A stretch of 64,000 nt of DNA from an uncultured Candidatus Saccharibacteria bacterium. Its GTDB lineage: Bacteria; Patescibacteriota; UBA1384; DTJR01. The stretch lies in contig CAYYMZ010000002.1 in assembly GCA_964473025.1 (NCBI GenBank), positions 3,241-67,240 on the forward strand, given 5' to 3'. Made by a program: the position numbers and the translations under genes. How positions within the stretch are numbered: the first letter of the stretch is position 1; each line of letters opens with the position of its first letter. Below the pieces are notes generated by a model. That model was not told the DNA's origin. It saw only the letters and a program-made list of their open reading frames with translations, and did no database searches. This document shows, in pieces, positions 27,284 through 59,164 of this stretch.

Positions 27284-28216
27284 TCAAAGATCAACAACGA
27301 AACCTGCTGCTTTGCGATGACCACCCCCCTCAAACAATCGCGCAAGCCGCGAAACATCTATCTTGTCTGATTCTGTGCGTAAGCTGGCTTTTATTTTACC
27401 AGTTTCGGTTTCAACGAGCAAGATAGCGATCTTTGTTTGGGGGATAGTATTAATTAAATTAACAATTCCAGAAGCATCATCTTCGGTTGCGCCGCACAAC
27501 TTAAGGTCAGATCTTGAAAGATAGGTTAATACTATTCCACCCTCCTTAACACGCATCTTTTTTAATGCAATGCCCCATAATTTCAATGTGGATGATTTGC
27601 GAGAAAAACTAAGGTTTTGCGAAACAAGGCCTATCCTACCACCTAGACGGAGACACTCGGAAGCAATTTTAAGCGTTTCGACGGTAACGTTGGGATGCTG
27701 AAATCCTCCGGTATCATAGTAAATTCCCGCTAAAATATAAGTGGCCATTCTCGCGTCTATATTTGCGTTCATGTATTTCAAAAGCTTAAAAACAATCTCT
27801 GCCGCAGCAGAAGCACGATCGTCTACCAAGTTAACTTTAGAGATTTTATGTAGATTATTTCTTAGATGGTGGTCAATATTGATTAATGGCTTGGTTTTAC
27901 AAACCTGCTCCAACCGAACGGGGAAGCCGGTTCGGTTAGCATCACCGCAATCAATTGCAAAAATCAGATCATAGTCCCCAAGCAGAAAATCATTTTTAAT
28001 TTCAGAAATACCGGGTAAAAAATTAAAAACGGGAGGGATTCCCTCCTTGACCGCGCAATCAACTTTTTTTCCGATTCCCTTCAGGTAATCGCAGAGAGCT
28101 AAGGACGATGAAATGGTGTCGCCATCGGGAAAGCTATGAAGGAGAATCAAAATGTTCTGCGAGCTTGTAATGAGTACTTTAATCTCTTCAAACTTCTGCA
28201 TTGGCAATTTCAACAA
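27284..28216 (-). CDS. nrnA: DHH/DHHA1 phosphoesterase, NrnA-like (nanoRNase/pAp phosphatase)
   Basis: 'HSFPDGDTISS' (DHH), 'GGGHRKAAG' (DHHA1). 310 aa. Confidence 0.8.
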   Translation of the reverse strand: MLKLPMQKFEEIKVLITSSQNILILLHSFPDGDTISSSLALCDYLKGIGKKVDCAVKEGIPPVFNFLPGISEIKNDFLLGDYDLIFAIDCGDANRTGFPVRLEQVCKTKPLINIDHHLRNNLHKISKVNLVDDRASAAAEIVFKLLKYMNANIDARMATYILAGIYYDTGGFQHPNVTVETLKIASECLRLGGRIGLVSQNLSFSRKSSTLKLWGIALKKMRVKEGGIVLTYLSRSDLKLCGATEDDASGIVNLINTIPQTKIAILLVETETGKIKASLRTESDKIDVSRLARLFEGGGHRKAAGFVVDL

Positions 28217-31940: not shown

Positions 31941-32116
31941 TGGTGCCGGGGGACAGAGTCGATCACAAGTCCAAATCTGCTGATTTGGCTCGCGATCCCC
32001 GCTCGGCCCCGTCGGGCCTGCGCGCTCCGCCTCTTGTCGACTGGCTCTCAAGTTATCGGCCAGTCGTCCCCGTCAGTTACAATCCTGTTTTGCTAATGCA
32101 AAACCAGGATTTGAAT
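31941..32116 (-). repeat. GC-rich ORF-less element el1, immediately 3' of tRNA-Phe; ends with a 22-nt copy of the tRNA-Phe 3' terminus (T-loop C56 to CCA)
   Basis: Minus-sense 3' end '...ACUUGUGA|UCGACUCUGUCCCCCGGCACCA' equals the last 22 nt of tRNA-Phe. Internal motifs 'GCGAUCCCCGCUCGG' and 'AAAUCAGCAGAUUU' are shared with el2, el4 and el5. Confidence 0.65.
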
Positions 32117-32349: not shown

Positions 32350-32496
32350 TGGTGCGTCCAAGAGGACTCGGTCACAAGTTCGCGCCTGCTGGTGCGCCTC
32401 GCGACCCCGCCTCGCGCCCGTCGGCGCTGCGGCCTTCTCGTCCTCGGCTCCCAAATATTTGTTTGTCCTGGCCCTTCAGGCCCGGCCAAACAAATC
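32350..32496 (-). repeat. GC-rich ORF-less element el2, immediately 3' of tRNA-Val; ends with a 21-nt copy of the tRNA-Val 3' terminus
   Basis: Minus-sense 3' end '...AACUUGUGAC|CGAGUCCUCUUGGACGCACCA' is identical to tRNA-Val from T-loop C56. Motifs 'GAGAAGGCCGCAGCGCCGACGGGCGCGAGGCGGGGUCGCGAG'. Confidence 0.65.
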
Positions 32497-32963: not shown

Positions 32964-32968
32964 CTTTC

Positions 32969-33120
32969 TGGTGCCGAGGACAGGACTTGGTCACAAGTCG
33001 GCGCGATTCTAATTTTAAGGAATGCCCCGCTCGCGACCCCGCCTCCTTCACTCGCAAGCTCATTCAGTCCGGCTTTCAAGTCCGTCCATCCCAAATACAT
33101 AAAATCCGCCCCTTGCGGGA
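32969..33120 (-). repeat. GC-rich ORF-less element el3; ends with a 21-nt copy of the tRNA-Leu(GAG) 3' terminus although that tRNA lies 1.2 kb away across dedA
   Basis: Minus-sense 3' end '...GACUUGUGAC|CAAGUCCUGUCCUCGGCACCA' equals the tRNA-Leu(GAG) T-loop to CCA. Motif 'CGAGGCGGGGUCGCGAGCGGGGC'. Confidence 0.6.
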
Positions 33121-33384: not shown

Positions 33385-34095
33385 TCAAACATCATCGTTA
33401 AGATGTTCTTTTTTGAGTGTTTTCTCTATGTCTTTATAAGTCGCATGTTCAAGTTGCTGTTTTGATATTTTGGGTCCGCGTTTGTATTTTACATATTCAA
33501 TAAACATAGGCATTAGCGAAAGAGCGATGATTCCAAAGACAGCGTATTCGAAATTTGCCTTGATCACCGGTAGACCGCCGAAGAAGTATCCGGCAAATGT
33601 AAGAGAGGTCACCCATAAAAATGCTCCCGCAACATTGTAGAGAAGAAAAGTATTGTAATGCATTTTGCCGATACCGGCAACAAAGGGCGCAAAGGTGCGA
33701 ATAATTGGCAAAAATCGGGCGAGGATTATCGTCTTTCCTCCGTATTTGTCATAAAACTCACGCGTCTTTTCCAAGTAGGCCTTGTTGAAAAATCGCGAGT
33801 TTTGTTTAGAAAAAACCCGAGGCCCGACATAATGTCCAATCCAGTAGTTTGCGGTATCACCAAGCACAGCAGCGACCAGCATAATAGTATATATGGTCCA
33901 TATATCTAAGAATCCGCCGCCGGCAAGGGCCCCTACAGCAAATAGCAATGAATCTCCGGGCAAAAACGGTGTTACGACAAGGCCTGTTTCGGCGAAGATG
34001 ATGGCAAATATTATTACATAAGTCCAGCTACCAAAAACCGTGATGATATTACCCAGGTGTTTGTCAATGTGAAATATAAAATCAAAAATTTCCAT
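33385..34095 (-). CDS. DedA-family membrane protein
   Basis: 'VTPFLPGDSLLFAVGALAG' and a DedA (SNARE-associated) TM pattern. Confidence 0.85.
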   Translation of the reverse strand: MEIFDFIFHIDKHLGNIITVFGSWTYVIIFAIIFAETGLVVTPFLPGDSLLFAVGALAGGGFLDIWTIYTIMLVAAVLGDTANYWIGHYVGPRVFSKQNSRFFNKAYLEKTREFYDKYGGKTIILARFLPIIRTFAPFVAGIGKMHYNTFLLYNVAGAFLWVTSLTFAGYFFGGLPVIKANFEYAVFGIIALSLMPMFIEYVKYKRGPKISKQQLEHATYKDIEKTLKKEHLNDDV

Positions 34096-34280: not shown

Positions 34281-34321
34281 ACAAAAATGAATTATAAATT
34301 AAAAAAGTGCAAAACTCAATG

Positions 34322-34470
34322 GGTTTATCTCGTTGGTGCCGAAGGCGAGACTCGGTCACGCATAAAATTCTGCTGAATTTTTGCGCGACCCCGGCTCGGC
34401 ACCGTCGTGCCTGCGCCTTTCGAGTTTTCTCGGGCGCACCAACGAAATCCAAACCCTATCGGGTTTATCT
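34322..34470 (-). repeat. GC-rich ORF-less element el4; ends with a 34-nt copy of the 3' end (plus 13 nt of downstream flank) of the tRNA-like fragment at 34474..34532
   Basis: 'gggtttatctcgttggtgccgaaggcgagactcg' occurs at 34322..34355 and again at 34461..34494. Internal 'GCGCGACCCCGGCUCGGCACCGUCGUGCCUGCGCC' and 'AAAUUCUGCUGAAUUU' motifs. Confidence 0.6.
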
Positions 34471-34473
34471 CGT

Positions 34474-34532
34474 TGGTGCCGAAGGCGAGACTCGAACTCG
34501 CACGCCCTTGCGGGCACTGGCTCCCTTGCCCC
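34474..34532 (-). repeat. tRNA 3'-portion fragment (variable arm + T-arm 'GCGAGUUCGAGUCUCGC' + acceptor 3' 'CUUCGGC' + ACCA) separated from its putative 5' partner by an intact tRNA-Leu(CAG)
   Basis: Acceptor 3' strand 'CUUCGGC' is complementary to the 5' acceptor 'GCCGAAG' of the 5' fragment at 34686..34715. Confidence 0.5.
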
Positions 34533-34538
34533 GTTAAA

Positions 34539-34625
34539 TGGTGGGCGCGAGAGGAGTCGAACCTCCACGCCGTTGCCGACACATGATCCTGAATCATGCC
34601 TGTATACCAATTTCAGCACGCGCCC
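34539..34625 (-). tRNA. tRNA-Leu (anticodon CAG), CCA encoded
   Basis: 'GGGCGCGUGCUGAAAUUGGUAUACAGG-CAUGA-UUCAGGA-UCAUG' + long variable arm + 'GGAGGUUCGACUCCUCU-CGCGCCCACCA'. Confidence 0.8.
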
Positions 34626-34715: not shown

Positions 34716-34740
34716 TGATTTTCAAGGAATATTCGCGAGC

Positions 34741-34822
34741 TCCATCTCGCAAAGCCATGGCCTTGCGGCCACTGGCTCCTGAAGCCAGCGCGTCTACCAA
34801 TTTCGCCACCTGCCCTTTTTCT
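34741..34822 (-). pseudogene. tRNA-Leu(CAG)-like pseudogene: acceptor 5', D-arm, anticodon arm (loop UUCAGGA), variable arm and a degenerate T-hairpin, but no matching acceptor 3' strand/CCA
   Basis: 'GGGCAGGUGGCGAAAUUGGUAGACGCG-CUGGC-UUCAGGA-GCCAG-UGGCCGCAAGGCCAU-...GCGAGAUGGAGCUCGC'. Confidence 0.45.
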
Positions 34823-55242: not shown

Positions 55243-57027
55243 TCAAATAATTTGCGCGAGTTCTTCTCTCTCGATAGTTTCTTTTTTAAGGAGTGTCTCA
55301 GCTAATTTTTTGAGTTTGGTTTTGTTTTTAGTTAGGACTTCTTTGGCCTTAGCTTCGCCTTCGCGGACAAATTTCTCTACTTCCATATCAACCTGTGAGG
55401 CAACTTTTTCGGAAACATTTTTGTGCTCGCCCAATTCGCGGCCAAGAAAGACCATCTCGTCACGCTCTTTGGTGACAATCGGGCCTAAGAGATCGCTCAT
55501 ACCATAAACCTGCACCATATCACGGGCAATTTTAGTAGCACGCTCCAAGTCATTTGATGCCCCGGTGGTAAATTCGTTAAAGATCATTTTCTCAGAAACG
55601 CGGCCGGCTAGAAGTTGGGCGATATCATTCAAGAACCCGTTTTTTGACTGCATATATTTATCTTCCCTCGGTGTGCTCCAAGTATAACCCAACGCCATGC
55701 CGCGTGAGACAATTGAGATTTTATGCAGCTCTTCTTCGGGTTTTAAGATTTTGCCGACAATCGCATGTCCCGCTTCGTGATAAGCAGAGATCTTTTTTTC
55801 TTCTTCCGACATGATTTTGCTTTTGCGCTCAGGACCCAACGTTACCTTCTCTACTGCGCGTAAAATATCAAATTCAGTCACCGTTTTTTGGTTTTGGCGC
55901 GCAGCTAAAATAGCAGCTTCGTTCATTACATTTCTTAAATCCGCGCCACTCATTCCAACCGTATGCGTGGCAACGCGGGATAAATCAACACCTTTTTCAA
56001 CCGGCTTGTTCTTGGAGTGAATTTTTAAAATCGCTACGCGCTCTTTTTTATCAGGCAGCGATAAAGCAACACGGCGGTCAAATCTGCCGGGACGCAAAAG
56101 CGCCGGATCTAGCACGTCGGGACGGTTTGTGGCCGCCAAGATGATGACACGCGTGTCTGTATCAAATCCGTCCATTTCAACCAGTATCTGATTTAAGGTC
56201 TGTTCTCGCTCATCGTGGCTGCCACCAAGGCCAGCTCCGCGCTGGCGGCCAATGGCATCTAATTCATCAATAAAAATAACACAAGGGGCATTTCTTTTTG
56301 CTTTCATAAACATATCGCGCACGCGCGAGGCACCGACACCGACAAACATCTCAACAAACTCCGAGGCGGAAATTGCAAAAAATGGGACGGCGGCTTCTCC
56401 CGCAACAGCTTTAGCTAATAGCGTTTTTCCAACTCCGGGCAAGCCCACCAGCAAAACCCCTTTTGGTATTTCTGCGCCCAAGGCCTTAAACTTAGTCGGA
56501 TTTTTCAAAAACTGAACAACCTCAACCAACTCTTCTTTTGCTTCATCTAACCCGGCTACATCGGCAAAAGTAACCTTATTGTTGGCGTTGGAAAGGCGCG
56601 CGGTTGATTTACCGAAACTCATTGCTTTCATATTGGCACCTTGGGCCTGGCGCAGCATAAAGTAAATAAATCCCCCCAAGAGCAAAAACGGTAAAACAAT
56701 ACCCAGGATCGTTGGCCAGGCACTGCCGGAATCTGGATTTTTGACATCGAGCGTAACTTTATCTGGTGTAATACCGTAATCAACCAGCGAGATCCCCTGC
56801 TCTTTGTATGACTGAAGCTGTTTGCCGTCTTTTAGATCGGCGGTTATTTTATCGTTTTGCCCGGTAATTTTTGTTATGTTGCCCAATCTAACTTCCTCCT
56901 GGATACGGCTTAAAGTAACGTTTTCGGGAGCTGTCTTGTAAAGAGGGCTGAATAAATTATAAAGAGTAGCCGCTACAAGCAGCAATACAACAACAGTTGC
57001 TATCGTTCTAATTTGATTTGGTTTCAT
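55243..57027 (-). CDS. ftsH: ATP-dependent zinc metalloprotease FtsH
   Basis: Two TM helices, AAA '[13 protein letters not shown]', SRH, and a Zn site 'HEAGHA'. Confidence 0.95.
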
Positions 57028-57064
57028 GATATAAGTTAAAAGTTAAAAAAATTAGTTGTGGGGC

Positions 57065-57171
57065 GACGTGGGATGGTGGTAGTGACCGGATTCGAACCTG
57101 TGACCTAGGGGTTATGATTCCCTCGCTCCCAGCCTCATCGGCTGGTCCGCCGTAGAGGCGGATAACTTCAC
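57065..57171 (-). repeat. tRNA-Met-like 3' fragment (anticodon arm with CAU, T-arm, acceptor 3', CCA) lacking a matching 5' acceptor; joined to tRNA-Met by a 'UUUAACGGGG' linker
   Basis: '...GAGCGAGGGAAUCAUAACCCCUAGGUCACAGGUUCGAAUCCGGUCACUACCACCA'. The same 'CCA-UUUAACGGGG' junction follows tRNA-Leu(CAG) at 34532..34538. Confidence 0.5.
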
Positions 57172-57246
57172 CCCGTTAAATGGTGGTAGCAGGAGGGTTC
57201 GAACCTCCGACCTAAGGGTTATGATTCCTTCGCTCTACCACTGAGC
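57172..57246 (-). tRNA. tRNA-Met/Ile2 (anticodon CAU), CCA encoded
   Basis: 'GGUAGCAUAGCUCAGUGGUAGAGCG-AAGGA-AUCAUAA-CCCUU-AGGUC-GGAGGUUCGAACCCUCC-UGCUACCACCA' with full acceptor pairing. Confidence 0.8.
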
Positions 57247-57351
57247 TATGCTACCTTCGTTATCTAATAAAATTAACGGGGCATGCTGAGCTACACTACC
57301 GTAGCTACAGTGATATTTTACGCGCTCAACCTTAAAATGTAAAGTGTCTTT

Positions 57352-57379
57352 AACATAAAAACTTGCCGCCTTAGCAAGT
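57352..57379 (-). terminator. rho-independent terminator directly after el5
   Basis: Minus sense 'ACUUGCUAAGGCGGCAAGU' + 'UUUUAUGUU'. Confidence 0.6.
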
Positions 57380-57405
57380 TTTAGCTTAATTTTGGTGGGG
57401 TGTAT

Positions 57406-57581
57406 GCCTACCAGCAGGGATTCGGTCACCCGCCGAAATCTGCTGATTTCGCGGTCGACCCCGTTTATTAATTCCCTGTCGGATTATTCGCGAGTTCCAC
57501 CCTCGCGAAGCGCGCCGTCGCGCTCCGGCCTTCTCATCCCACCCGCCAAAATGGCTCGCCCCCTTCGGGTGCAATCCATTT
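57406..57581 (-). repeat. GC-rich ORF-less element el5, immediately 3' of tRNA-Met(CAU); ends with a degenerate copy of the tRNA 3' region ('GUGAC|CGAAUCCCUGCUGGUAGGCA')
   Basis: Shares 'GAGAAGGCCGGAGCGCGACGGCGCGC', 'GGGGUCGACCGCG' and 'AAAUCAGCAGAUUU' blocks with el1, el2 and el4. The first 40 nt after the tRNA CCA form a long hairpin. Confidence 0.6.
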
Positions 57582-57658
57582 TGGTAGCAGGGGTGGGATT
57601 CGAACCCACGACCTCAAGGTTATGAGCCTTGCGAGCTACCAGACTGCTCCACCCTGCG
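57582..57658 (-). tRNA. tRNA-Met (anticodon CAU) with unpaired C1·U72, possibly initiator-type; CCA encoded
   Basis: 'CGCAGGGUGGAGCAGUCUGGUAGCUCG-CAAGG-CUCAUAA-CCUUG-AGGUC-GUGGGUUCGAAUCCCAC-CCCUGCUACCA'. Confidence 0.78.
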
Positions 57659-57771
57659 CCAATTTAACAACTTCAAATAACTCTCTCACCACTAGGCCTA
57701 AAAATAGCACAAATGCCACAAAAAGTAAACCCCAACATCCATTAAATCAGGTTGGCGGGGCCAATCTTAAA

Positions 57772-58176
57772 TTAGGATCCGTCAAGTGCCTGATTCACAA
57801 GTTTGTCCGCCTCTTTATTTTGCTCGCGCCTGACGTGGCGGAAAACGACTGCGCCGCCAAGCTCCAAAACAAGCTCCCTTACCTCATAGTAGAGTTCTTT
57901 TAGGTTTGCATCCTTAACTTTATACTCCCCATTCAACTGCCGTGAAACTAGCTCTGAGTCCAAGTTTATTTCTATTGATTGGGGTTTGAATTTTTCTTTC
58001 GCTATTTTCAGGGCGCAAATCACGGCTCTATATTCAGCCACATTATTTGTCGCCTCGCCTATTCGTTCTTTGTGAGAGTGGATTTTTTTGTCATCGCTAA
58101 AAAAAACGACCCCGACTGCCGCCTCTCCCGGGTTACCGCGCGCACCCCCGTCTGTAAAAATTTTTAAATCATTCAT
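57772..58176 (-). CDS. rnhA: ribonuclease HI
   Basis: 'IFTDGGARGNPG', 'TNNVAEYRA', 'VVFRHVRREQNKEAD'. Start taken at the internal Met of ORF 57772..58287. Confidence 0.85.
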   Translation of the reverse strand: MNDLKIFTDGGARGNPGEAAVGVVFFSDDKKIHSHKERIGEATNNVAEYRAVICALKIAKEKFKPQSIEINLDSELVSRQLNGEYKVKDANLKELYYEVRELVLELGGAVVFRHVRREQNKEADKLVNQALDGS

Positions 58177-58177
58177 T

Positions 58178-59164
58178 TTAGAGCCCACTACATTCACTAC
58201 CACAATATATACCGTAATCAAAGAGGCCGAGATAATTTCCGTTGTTTGAGGAATCAAGTTTTGCTTCAACTTTTCGCCGCGCTCCACCCGCCGATCCGAC
58301 CGATGAAATAATCAGGGTACCGGGTGCGTTTTGGGTTGGGATAAGCTTCTTATTTGTGGTTGCCTCAATGGCATAAAATATTGACCTTGATTGATCACTT
58401 GCGGGAGCACCTGTTATCCTGCCTGCCTTCTGTGCATTTGCGAGCAGATCCCTACTTCCGATCTGGGGCCTGATGCGAAGATGGCATGTGACATTTGTCA
58501 TTTGGCATTTAACGAAATCACCTATCTCAATCATATTTTTGCTCGGGTCGATATTAGTATCTTCCCAAATAAGCTGATTTTCACCCGAAAGTGTTGAAGA
58601 TGTGTCCACTAAGCGAACATTAATGGCTGTGAAATAATTGCTCGCAAGAGAGGTTGGCAATGGCGTGGTATTCGCATAAGGCGGGGTGAAATAAATTTTT
58701 ATATCAGTCAGAAGTTCGCCCGGACCCTGCGCTTTTGATGTAAAATAGGTCAGATCAATATCAACCGTGTCATCAATATTGATGCTCCTTGCTTTTGCGG
58801 GATCTAACAACAACTGGATAGATGCCCCAGATGCGATGCTCGATATATCGCCAACGCTTAATGAGTCGGTCTTAAAGCCAAGCCGGTATGATATTTCGGT
58901 GCCGCCTGCGTTTGGTATCGTCGTCTTGCCTAAATCGCCAAAGAGTTCCTGCGTCACGTTATCGGCCTTGGCGTATTTATACCTTAAAAGCCCGTCTTCG
59001 ATGCCGGAGAGGGCCGCCCTGTAGGCGAGTTTTCCGTCCCTAGATTGCGCGGACATTTGAGAAAATTGGCTCATCGCAACCGACGCACCGATAACCAGAC
59101 CTGACACAACTACTCCAAGCGCCAGAGCAACTAACAGAGCTGATGATTTATATTTTTTCATCAA
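58178..59164 (-). CDS. pilus-associated protein with N-terminal hydrophobic pilin-like segment (non-canonical prepilin motif)
   Basis: 328 aa with 'SSALLVALALGVVVSGLVIG'. Last gene of the pilin gene run. Confidence 0.4.
   Translation of the reverse strand: MMKKYKSSALLVALALGVVVSGLVIGASVAMSQFSQMSAQSRDGKLAYRAALSGIEDGLLRYKYAKADNVTQELFGDLGKTTIPNAGGTEISYRLGFKTDSLSVGDISSIASGASIQLLLDPAKARSINIDDTVDIDLTYFTSKAQGPGELLTDIKIYFTPPYANTTPLPTSLASNYFTAINVRLVDTSSTLSGENQLIWEDTNIDPSKNMIEIGDFVKCQMTNVTCHLRIRPQIGSRDLLANAQKAGRITGAPASDQSRSIFYAIEATTNKKLIPTQNAPGTLIISSVGSAGGARRKVEAKLDSSNNGNYLGLFDYGIYCGSECSGL

Follow-up and report, generated by a model that had tools for sequence, protein, structure and literature searches.

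The window, that is, the whole 64,000-nt stretch of DNA analysed here, contains a spacer between rnhA and ftsH all of whose features lie on the minus strand. In that direction of reading they are as follows; where no program, search or comparison is named, the feature was read directly from the letters.

57772-58287, minus strand: rnhA (RNase H; Pfam)
57658..57582, minus strand: initiator-type tRNA(CAU) with an encoded CCA (ARAGORN; Rfam tRNA, 63.5 bits)
57581..57546, minus strand: hairpin L, directly 3' of the initiator tRNA (CCAAAAUGG...CCAUUUUGG; also from a fold of the segment from C56 to the arm)
57548..57536, minus strand: A', the 5' arm of el5 (UGGCGGGUGGGAU), antisense to the tRNA 3' end but diverged from it
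57543..57422, minus strand: core of el5, one of a family of tRNA-associated elements described below (CM R1, CM R2; fold z = -3.4)
57424..57393, minus strand: tail of el5, a degenerate repeat of the tRNA 3' end, with CGAAUCCC, UGCUGGUAGGCAUA and CACCCCACCA in that order (comparison with the tRNA)
about 57383..57355, minus strand: symmetric terminator-like hairpin with a U run, closing the tRNA-fMet/el5 unit
57343..57315, minus strand: promoter-like TTTACA-17-TAAAAT (scan, 10/12 matches), upstream of the split and nested tRNA-Met
57300..57286, minus strand: 5' fragment (nt 1-15, GGUAGUGUAGCUCAG) of a putative ancestral elongator tRNA-Met (matches relatives)
57281..57273, minus strand: left inverted-repeat arm, CCCCGUUAA (pattern search)
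57255..57181, minus strand: inner, intact elongator-type tRNA-Met(CAU), the putative replacement copy (ARAGORN; Rfam, 68.3 bits)
57179..57171, minus strand: right inverted-repeat arm, UUAACGGGG (pattern search)
57170..57132, minus strand: filler with two small hairpins (CCGCC-UCUAC-GGCGG and AGCC-GAUG-AGGCU; no CM match)
57131..57074, minus strand: 3' fragment of the putative ancestral elongator tRNA-Met, from the D-loop UGG to CCA
55243-57027, minus strand: ftsH (Pfam)

The locus may be read as rnhA, initiator tRNA, el5, terminator, promoter, an interrupted ancestral elongator tRNA-Met, and ftsH. Elsewhere the window holds housekeeping genes (by Pfam, MreB, SecA, AlaRS, RuvB, MiaA and KsgA, for example). 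Its FtsH is 73-77% identical to proteins from Candidatus Berkelbacteria and related Patescibacteria MAGs, and these relatives also have two tRNA(CAU) genes upstream of ftsH. An independent ENA contig has a 750-bp rnhA-ftsH spacer identical to that of the window. No strain-level empty site was available for comparison, the sole contig with an identical FtsH having the identical arrangement.

An earlier note on this DNA, made without database searches, had called two tRNA(CAU) genes here, and had suggested from an unpaired C.U at 1:72 that the one at 57582..57658 might be an initiator. ARAGORN and Rfam agree on both genes (57658..57582, 63.5 bits; 57255..57181, 68.3 bits), with ARAGORN assigning a CAU anticodon to the initiator candidate, and the Rfam alignment flags C1.U72 as non-canonical. 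The same alignment gives the candidate a GGAGC...GCUC D-stem and hence A11:U24, where elongator tRNAs have Y11:R24. Its position is that of a tRNA upstream of ftsH in the relatives L001-L005, in which 1:72 is C.U (L001, L005) or C.A (L002, L004). The proposed initiator identity is therefore supported, as far as can be judged from C1.U72, A11:U24 and the position shared with the relatives' C1.A72 or C1.U72 tRNA. What is absent from the candidate is the run of three consecutive G:C pairs closing the anticodon stem: this stem is CAAGG/CCUUG, with only G30:C40 and G31:C39. The relatives' tRNAs at this position likewise have two G:C pairs, so that such a stem appears to be typical of the lineage.

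The inner tRNA-Met, with a paired 1:72 and C11:G24, is elongator-like. Downstream of it lies the tRNA-Met-like 3' fragment that had been noticed before, and which is real: it begins at the 3' strand of the D-stem, ends at CCA, and gives a sub-threshold Rfam tRNA match (57142..57077, 19.8 bits), the previously proposed start at 57063 taking in 11 nt of trailer. Its derivation from tRNA-Met stands, but to call it a fragment was incomplete: it belongs to a split gene, whose other half, the 5' one, lies at 57300..57286. L002 and L004 have an intact tRNA upstream of ftsH that starts with exactly the sequence of this 5' half; the two halves joined in silico are called by ARAGORN as a tRNA-Met(cat) of 73 nt; and within the T-stem of the 3' half is a mismatch (A51.G63) not shared by the orthologs in L001 and L002. 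On these three grounds, an ancestral elongator tRNA-Met is inferred to have received, after G15, an insertion of about 155 bp with a complete replacement tRNA-Met. Since the relatives carry that tRNA intact, the ancestral gene would have been cut in its D-loop. For the inner and the outer tRNA(CAU), a lysidine-type tRNA-Ile2 identity is made less likely by the tRNA-Ile(UAU) that relatives (L002, L006-L008, L010, L014) carry a few kb from the locus, which argues for elongator Met; the argument is an indirect one from relatives, the window itself having no tRNA-Ile(UAU).

The inner tRNA-Met is bracketed by the inverted repeat CCCCGUUAA/UUAACGGGG, with the filler between it and the 3' fragment. 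A shared junction motif had been reported here; it is indeed present, as TTTAACGGGG, in exactly two copies on this strand of the window (57180..57171 and 34538..34529), each immediately 3' of a tRNA CCA, against a chance expectation of about 0.1 exact copies in 128 kb. What had been overlooked is that the motif contains the right arm, UUAACGGGG, of an inverted repeat with CCCCGUUAA. The same bracket encloses a tRNA-Leu(CAG) (34625..34539) that is seated in the anticodon loop of another split tRNA-Leu, and in L001 (2795-2835) the same palindrome occurs without a tRNA inside. TTAACGGGG was considered as a general family motif and discarded, being not enriched across 2.2 Mb of loci (14 found, 16 expected).

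Archaeal split tRNAs, and the group I intron in the T-loop of clostridial tmRNA, are likewise interrupted in loops (D, anticodon or T), with halves that lie close together. The split genes here differ in belonging to a bacterium and in being accompanied, each of them, by an intact copy of the same tRNA, either inside the gene or next to it; the split copy also has a stem mismatch. From the intact copies and the mismatch, the split halves are taken to be remnants. No target duplication was seen around the nested tRNA cassettes, and their mode of insertion cannot be stated. The nested tRNA-Met insertion, lacking such a duplication, does not fit the scheme considered below for el.

The element el5 itself follows the initiator tRNA, the last 21 nt of which (C56..A76, 57602..57582) are the segment designated A. 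Hairpin L is the counterpart of the symmetric hairpin or terminator that separates tRNA and arm in other copies. In the MFE fold, arm A' pairs with the CACCCCACC tail. The core consists of a GAGAAGG junction, P2 with its hairpin P2a (loop GACG), and P3 (57462..57424, loop CAGCAG) ending in ...GUGAC. There is also an extra module, GCGAGGGUGGAACUCGCGAAUAAUCC (57506..57481), common to a tRNA-Leu pseudogene at 34749..34724, and a second inner arm, CAGGGAAU. With its extra module, second arm and degenerate tail, el5 is rearranged, and it is read as an old copy of the family. Its relatives in the window are:

32116..31941, minus strand: el1, downstream of tRNA-Phe, with a 21-nt repeat of the tRNA 3' end (CM 97.9 for R1, 76.6 bits for R2)
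32496..32350, minus strand: el2, downstream of tRNA-Val, with a 21-nt repeat (CM 84.6 for R1, 77.0 bits for R2)
33100..32967, minus strand: el3, with a 23-nt repeat matching a tRNA-Leu(GAG) 1.1 kb upstream (CM 34.5 for R1, 53.4 bits for R2)
34460..34321, minus strand: el4, which follows a 3' tRNA-Leu fragment from a split gene (CM 98.4 for R1, 86.8 bits for R2)

Two models were used. R1 was built from el1, el2, el4 and one copy from L001, and also finds el3 and el5; R2 was built only from 79 metagenome copies, with no sequence from the window, and finds el1-el4 at 53-87 bits as well as el5. The score of el5, which was not used in building either, is 40.5 bits (E = 7e-7) with R1 and 35.8 bits (E = 3.7e-6) with R2, the weakest of the five window copies. 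The kinship of el5 with el1, el2 and el4 asserted in the earlier note is thus upheld and, since el5 is statistically supported as a member alongside el1-el4, so is its claim that the family is not confined to one locus and recurs 23 kb away, here between rnhA and ftsH. The terminator that it placed at the end of el5 can be identified with the hairpin and U run at about 57383..57355; the scan tool listed this hairpin for the plus strand alone, and that it serves the minus strand is inferred from the letters. The description of a tRNA-associated family was correct as far as it went but incomplete: the family occurs across the CPR and is tied to the T-loops of tRNA and tmRNA genes, and what had been missed is that each el copy closes with a direct repeat of the last 21 nt of its tRNA. 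A search of the window with filters off gave no sixth significant copy.

Outside the window, a pattern scan of metagenomes (the pattern fixing 20 bases) gave at least 120 loci, and 79 el copies were confirmed in the 82 metagenome loci searched. The family is common in groundwater and sediment metagenomes and occurs in Berkelbacteria, Vogelbacteria and Parcubacteria. With R2, the window has five copies in 64 kb, compared with five in 1.34 Mb of other CPR loci; about half of its tRNAs have an el. Against Rfam 15, only tRNA reaches threshold at either locus, with nothing else relevant up to E = 5-10 and thus no match for el. Blastn of el2 against phage and plasmid collections returned nothing, or chance GC-rich matches, and no published description of the family was found in full-text literature searches. 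The el family is therefore apparently an undescribed structured element attaching to tRNA and tmRNA genes in the CPR.

At least 52 of 86 el copies lie no more than 200 nt downstream of a tRNA or tmRNA gene on the same strand, and many of the remainder are cut by contig ends; the hosts comprise 14 tRNA isotypes and tmRNA. In an integrated copy the parts follow one another as tRNA[1-55], A (nt 56-76), L, A', a junction (AAAG/GAAGG), P2, P3 ending in GUGAC, a second A, and a terminator. L is usually a symmetric hairpin, and many of these hairpins are canonical terminators, with A and U tracts that match; in some copies a stretch of cargo genes stands there instead. A' is an imperfect antisense copy of A that can pair with either copy of it. 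Over tRNA nt 56-76, the best antisense complementarity to the downstream arm has a median score of 18.5 for el-bearing tRNAs and 12 for 107 control tRNAs, and scores of at least 20 are reached by 18 of 44 and 2 of 107, respectively. This comparison replaced a count of hairpins (28/44), which is unusable as a test, a liberal control giving 59/108. The repeat of el4 is 34 nt long (tRNA nt 56-76 and 13 nt of flank), with an arm antisense to all 34 nt.

The core proper is a three-way junction of some 70-80 nt. P2 is GCC/GGC, divided from the variable hairpin P2a by an internal loop (GGA opposite GA). The lower stem of P3 (GGUCGCG/UGUGACC) is conserved; it contains a bulged A and two G.U pairs that hardly vary. 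The hairpin at the tip of P3, P3a, is variable, with CAGCAG as a frequent loop. In an alignment of 78 distinct sequences, 96.2% of cells are paired, compared with 71% after shuffling and 30-47% with slid partners, and there are 422 double-change cells against 119. Two caveats apply: the 20 bases fixed by the search pattern inflate the conservation figures, and the alignment used (A3) was fitted to the model. When A' pairs with the downstream A, the three-way junction is closed into something resembling a mini-tRNA, which has an acceptor-like stem, an optional side hairpin at 65|66 and a T-like stem, while the core substitutes for nt 54-55. The arm of at least eight loci is interrupted by an extra hairpin exactly at the boundary of acceptor and T-stem, and there element and tail together are mini-tRNA-like.

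Such a structure raises the possibility that el is a functional noncoding RNA, a mimic of the 3' half of each tRNA acting as decoy, regulator or primer for a tRNA-recognising enzyme. It would be transcribed by read-through from the tRNA or independently, and the direct repeat would be kept because tRNA identity is its function. This seems unlikely to us, though not to be dismissed: the strong covariation, the conservation of G.U pairs on the tRNA sense strand only and the mini-tRNA-like fold with its precisely placed side hairpin all speak for it, as do a second terminator 3' of the repeat, the persistence of perfect repeats while arms diverge, and the span of the family over Berkelbacteria, Vogelbacteria and Parcubacteria. 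It is hard to reconcile with the canonical intrinsic terminator that usually stands between tRNA and el, with the lack of room for a separate promoter, with the presence of el at only about half of the window's tRNAs, with the kilobases of unrelated cargo that are possible, or with copies that are patchy in relatives, arranged in tandem, or degenerate, truncated or nested.

Two side observations belong here. The G.U pairs of P3 and the tRNA-mimicking fold are what one would expect in a functional RNA more than in a DNA site, and so count against mobility; and the combination of often perfect repeats with diverged arms fits selection for tRNA identity as well as it fits recent insertion. Group I introns were ruled out, as there is no Intron_gpI match, el ends in ...GUGAC (C, not G), and upstream of it is a complete tRNA rather than nt 1-55. 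Hammerhead and other ribozymes were also ruled out, there being no model match, and junction sequences that by eye are unlike the hammerhead core.

The repeats are sharply defined at one end and not at the other. Thirty copies have an exact repeat of 10 nt or more, and in every one of them it starts at C56 of the T-loop, preceded by GGTT (in one case GGTG). The far end varies from the end of the tRNA to about 30 nt past it, with a 51-nt repeat in L118 and an additional 13 nt in el4; some of the long repeats are tandem whole units. A fixed 3' junction with a repeat end 0 to about 30 nt beyond the tRNA (51 nt in L118, +13 nt in el4) is what a SINE-like retroelement might leave if it moved by target-primed reverse transcription, with a precise nick at 55|56 priming on its tRNA-like 3' tail and a variable second cut giving a target duplication of variable length. 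The RNA-type structure with a tRNA-like 3' end would suit this, as would one copy whose arm comes from a different tRNA than its repeat. We nevertheless consider it improbable: there is no reverse transcriptase motif in the 15,066 ORFs of the fetched loci, the upstream terminator argues against efficient transcription, the antisense arm of el4, which covers locus-specific flank, is left unexplained, and the tandem units account in part for the long repeats.

Direct repeats of a tRNA 3' end beginning in the T-loop are also the classic signature of tRNA-integrating islands. The el cores might then be the leftover att-proximal ends of decayed integrase-driven islands or prophages whose attB sites were tRNA and tmRNA genes, an idea to which the targeting of tmRNA, and the copies that lie 0.8-1.7 kb from their tRNA with unrelated genes between, lend some support. 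It remains a very improbable one, given that most insertions are of only about 100-220 bp, with nothing but the element in them, that crude regexes and the best 25 Pfam matches listed showed no integrase nearby, that a single conserved, covarying structure serves 14 isotypes, and that what lies to the left of C56 is the P3 hairpin and not a T-stem half-site. Integrase-driven islands at tRNA and tmRNA genes do resemble el in that the element-borne 3' end restores the gene while the displaced end becomes a direct repeat starting in the T-loop, and in that tmRNA is also a target. Of what such islands would lead one to expect, the direct repeat of the tRNA 3' end is present (30/30 scorable copies at C56); an integrase within the insertions is not, the cargo ORFs of the longer insertions showing no recombinase in the same searches. 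The elements also differ from these islands in their size (100-200 bp, not kilobases), their antisense arm, and a structured core common to all isotypes.

Cargo genes replace the hairpin in some copies, GIY-YIG and DedA genes between A and A' being examples; in the window a DedA/VTT gene (33385-34095, Pfam) separates el3 from its tRNA-Leu(GAG). Small GIY-YIG ORFs adjoin tRNA genes in the window (38044-38295) and in L005, L006, L040, L108 and L136. GIY-YIG was rejected as the driver, as most el copies have none, and is treated as a separate tRNA-associated passenger.

The remaining possibility, and the one preferred here, is that el is a non-autonomous mobile element of Patescibacteria (CPR) that targets T-loops. 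This can be put forward only tentatively, as a reading somewhat short of an even chance; the enzyme is unknown, as is whether el would act as DNA or as RNA. Among related Berkelbacteria the elements are patchy, with el at both Met tRNAs in L001 and none in L002-L004. L085 and L086 have tandem whole units. Four to five copies lie within 1.4 kb in L146; three have near-identical cores, and one arm there matches a different tRNA than its own repeat. In L139 and L159 the core lies in the D-loop of a truncated tRNA-Ser beside an intact copy. The cargo between A and A', and the high density of copies in the window relative to other CPR loci, are counted on the same side. The insertions in this genome would not be recent, as the cores of el1-el4 differ a great deal.

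No gene for a mobilising enzyme could be pointed to. There is no recombinase, transposase or reverse transcriptase next to the copies or in the 64-kb window by crude regexes and among the best 25 Pfam matches listed, nor any match to tyrosine recombinases, IS200 or TnpB next to el (again by crude regexes), and Pfam identifies housekeeping genes among 150 ORFs of the neighbourhoods and 54 ORFs of the window. Neither an excised form nor a precise empty site at the level of strains was seen. As a separate observation, the terminator commonly present between tRNA and arm is a hint of action at the DNA level.

If el is mobile, it might move as a folded single strand, in which the A':A helix stacked on P3 would mimic the duplex T-arm/acceptor region of the target gene. 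Insertion would then take a single strand exchange, in which a small folded circle, [A-L-A'-core], joins the gene at 55|56; CTXphi attP(+) (with XerCD), integron attC x attI and IS200/IS605 offer parallels. The enzyme, as yet unidentified, would be encoded elsewhere and act in trans. This scheme would account for cargo at the hairpin tip, for tandem units, and for a tRNA left intact and terminated before the antisense arm. As a tRNA 3' end and a terminator come with the element, the tRNA would stay intact and the arm be mostly untranscribed. The specific exchange mechanism is an inference, and is held with less confidence than mobility itself.

Several known systems have properties in common with el. 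With CTXphi attP(+)/XerCD and integron attC x attI, el shares a one-strand imperfect palindrome that can fold to a duplex mimicking the target; a single strand exchange inserts a small circle (for el, by inference); terminal loops are variable with a conserved bulged base (in el an A, alignment column 160); and short repeats flank the insertions. The strand-specific imperfect palindrome, reconstituting the target duplex, that a folded single-strand att site requires is seen in el in its arm antisense to tRNA nt 56-76 and its G.U pairs on one strand only. The el target is, however, a tRNA or tmRNA T-loop and not dif or attI, the arm of its palindrome is tRNA-specific, and it has in addition a conserved three-way-junction core; action at the DNA level is only inferred, and IntI or XerCD enter by analogy alone.

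IS200/IS605 and the non-autonomous elements related to them (PATEs, REP/RAYT) are likewise small, strand-specific hairpin elements mobilised in trans (again inferred for el), and further resemble it in their short specific insertion sequence and covarying hairpins. They differ in that no Y1/HUH transposase or TnpB was found near el (crude regex), and in that el holds a copy of the 3' part of its target and leaves a long direct repeat, which IS200/IS605 do not. There is no Rfam match of el to IS605-orfB or HEARO RNAs. The omega RNAs of TnpB and IscB, like el, have a structured scaffold followed by about 20 nt of 3' flanking target sequence, but el has no adjacent nuclease gene, its "guide" is sequestered by the arm, and it would target an intact tRNA gene of its own cell.

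A stronger version of the mobility reading is that el represents a new class of mobile element, in which a folded strand (RNA or DNA) imitating the acceptor/T-arm half of a tRNA recruits a host enzyme that recognises tRNAs or T-loops, and inserts at 55|56 with its own tRNA 3' end and terminator, thereby sparing the host gene; it would be CPR-specific and possibly RNA-mediated. As a whole this is somewhat doubtful, though possible.

Whatever its nature, the tRNA fragments, pseudo-tRNAs and repeats made by el confuse tRNA annotation and the assembly of CPR genomes, and a tiny CPR genome here tolerates at least five copies in 64 kb together with two split tRNA genes with nested replacement tRNAs. 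Should el prove to be a functional RNA, it would be an isotype-by-isotype mimic of tRNA whose partner enzyme is unknown. Should it be mobile, it would be a compact, programmable-looking means of inserting DNA at tRNA genes without harming them and, if the new-class reading is true, a tRNA-mimicking, self-insulating parasite of tRNA and tmRNA genes.

Beside its tRNA-Cys gene the window has a locus that looks like an el-type junction (el being the family of structured elements found 3′ of tRNA and tmRNA genes) limited to a P3-like hairpin:

Window 37965-38353, (+): tRNA-Cys, GIY-YIG ORF, hairpin and repeat

The ORF, 3′ of the tRNA (38044-38295 (+), 83 aa; Pfam E 1e-8 for GIY-YIG), is followed by a hairpin that is a perfect 14-bp palindrome ending in GUGAC, and beyond this the tRNA-Cys 3′ end is repeated over 20 nt (38334-38353 (+)). 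Against the covariance model of the el family, the locus scores 11.6 bits, which is not significant.

Sequence types other than el were also seen, both in the window and in the numbered comparison loci (L):

Window 31940-31895 and 38354-38410, L004 5941-6060, L005 1495-1600: CCUUCG-CCCC motif
L004 5487-5760: distinct tRNA-fMet-associated element, differing from el

The motif, in full CCUUCG-CCCC-loop-GGGG-CUUCGG(G/A)UGGC, recurs directly 3′ of tRNA ends or el repeats, and in L004 continues into a tandem array of three units, each about 33 nt long (GGCUACGGGUGGCAGGCCACCUUGCACCAAG). The tRNA-fMet-associated element consists of two units in tandem, each about 135 nt long and opening with an antisense T-arm copy (AGGAUUUGAACCCACGAG); at the close of the first unit the tRNA 3′ end is repeated over 23 nt, starting at U54.

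Remnants of tRNA genes, one of them sharing a module with el5, are found at several places in the window:

Window 34817-34465, (-): tRNA-Leu “graveyard,” upstream of el4
Window 57506..57481 and 34749..34724, (-): module GCGAG-RUGGAR-CUCGCGAAUAWUCC
Window about 27283-27230, (-): tRNA-Leu-like 5′ fragment, GCCCAAGUGGCGGAAUUGG...UUCAGGA
Window 32341-32312, (-): orphan tRNA 3′ fragment, CACAGGUUCGGAAUCCUGUAGCGGCCACCA

The graveyard begins with the 5′ portion of a tRNA-Leu(CAG) (34817..34756 (-)) whose T-arm is disrupted; at this broken arm is one copy of the module (34749..34724 (-)), and the other (57506..57481 (-)) lies within el5. The module is a hairpin with a T-loop-like CGAAU after it. A second tRNA-Leu (-) is split in its anticodon loop, at 35|36, by a cassette containing an intact tRNA-Leu(CAG) (34625..34539 (-)), and its D-arm holds a 29-nt insert, AGUCGCUGAAGCGAUAGCUUCUGCAGGCG, with an 11-nt direct repeat, GGUAUACACGC, on both sides (34696-34647 (-)); el4 is the next feature (-). 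The tRNA-Leu-like 5′ fragment, which overlaps an ORF (27284-28216) where that ORF ends, is close upstream of an intact tRNA-Leu(UAA). The orphan fragment, directly 3′ of the el2 repeat, comprises a T-arm, acceptor 3′ strand and CCA; no 5′ half matching it was found.

One el copy (L081/L156) is on a 34.7-kb contig, IMG/VR UViG 3300033463_005745, which is viral by classification and may be a CPR phage or prophage, or be misclassified. One el subfamily has an additional small hairpin, AAGCGUACUCGCGG, in the tail after CGA (nt 56-58), regardless of host tRNA (L108, L097, L104, L136, L083, L126). Other variants were:

L134, L130 (two copies), L133 1845-1906, L100 1259-1332: truncated el copies (model positions 15-78)
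L139 9385..9310 and L159 263..186, (-): el core in truncated tRNA-Ser(GCU)

In the truncated copies the arm is reduced to GUGCG or GGUGCC, the tail starts with CAC(A)AA, and the junction is at the extreme 3′ end of the tRNA, not the T-loop. In the truncated tRNA-Ser(GCU) copies, the core sits in the D-loop (junction GGU|CUAA), with an intact tRNA-Ser about 30 nt downstream.
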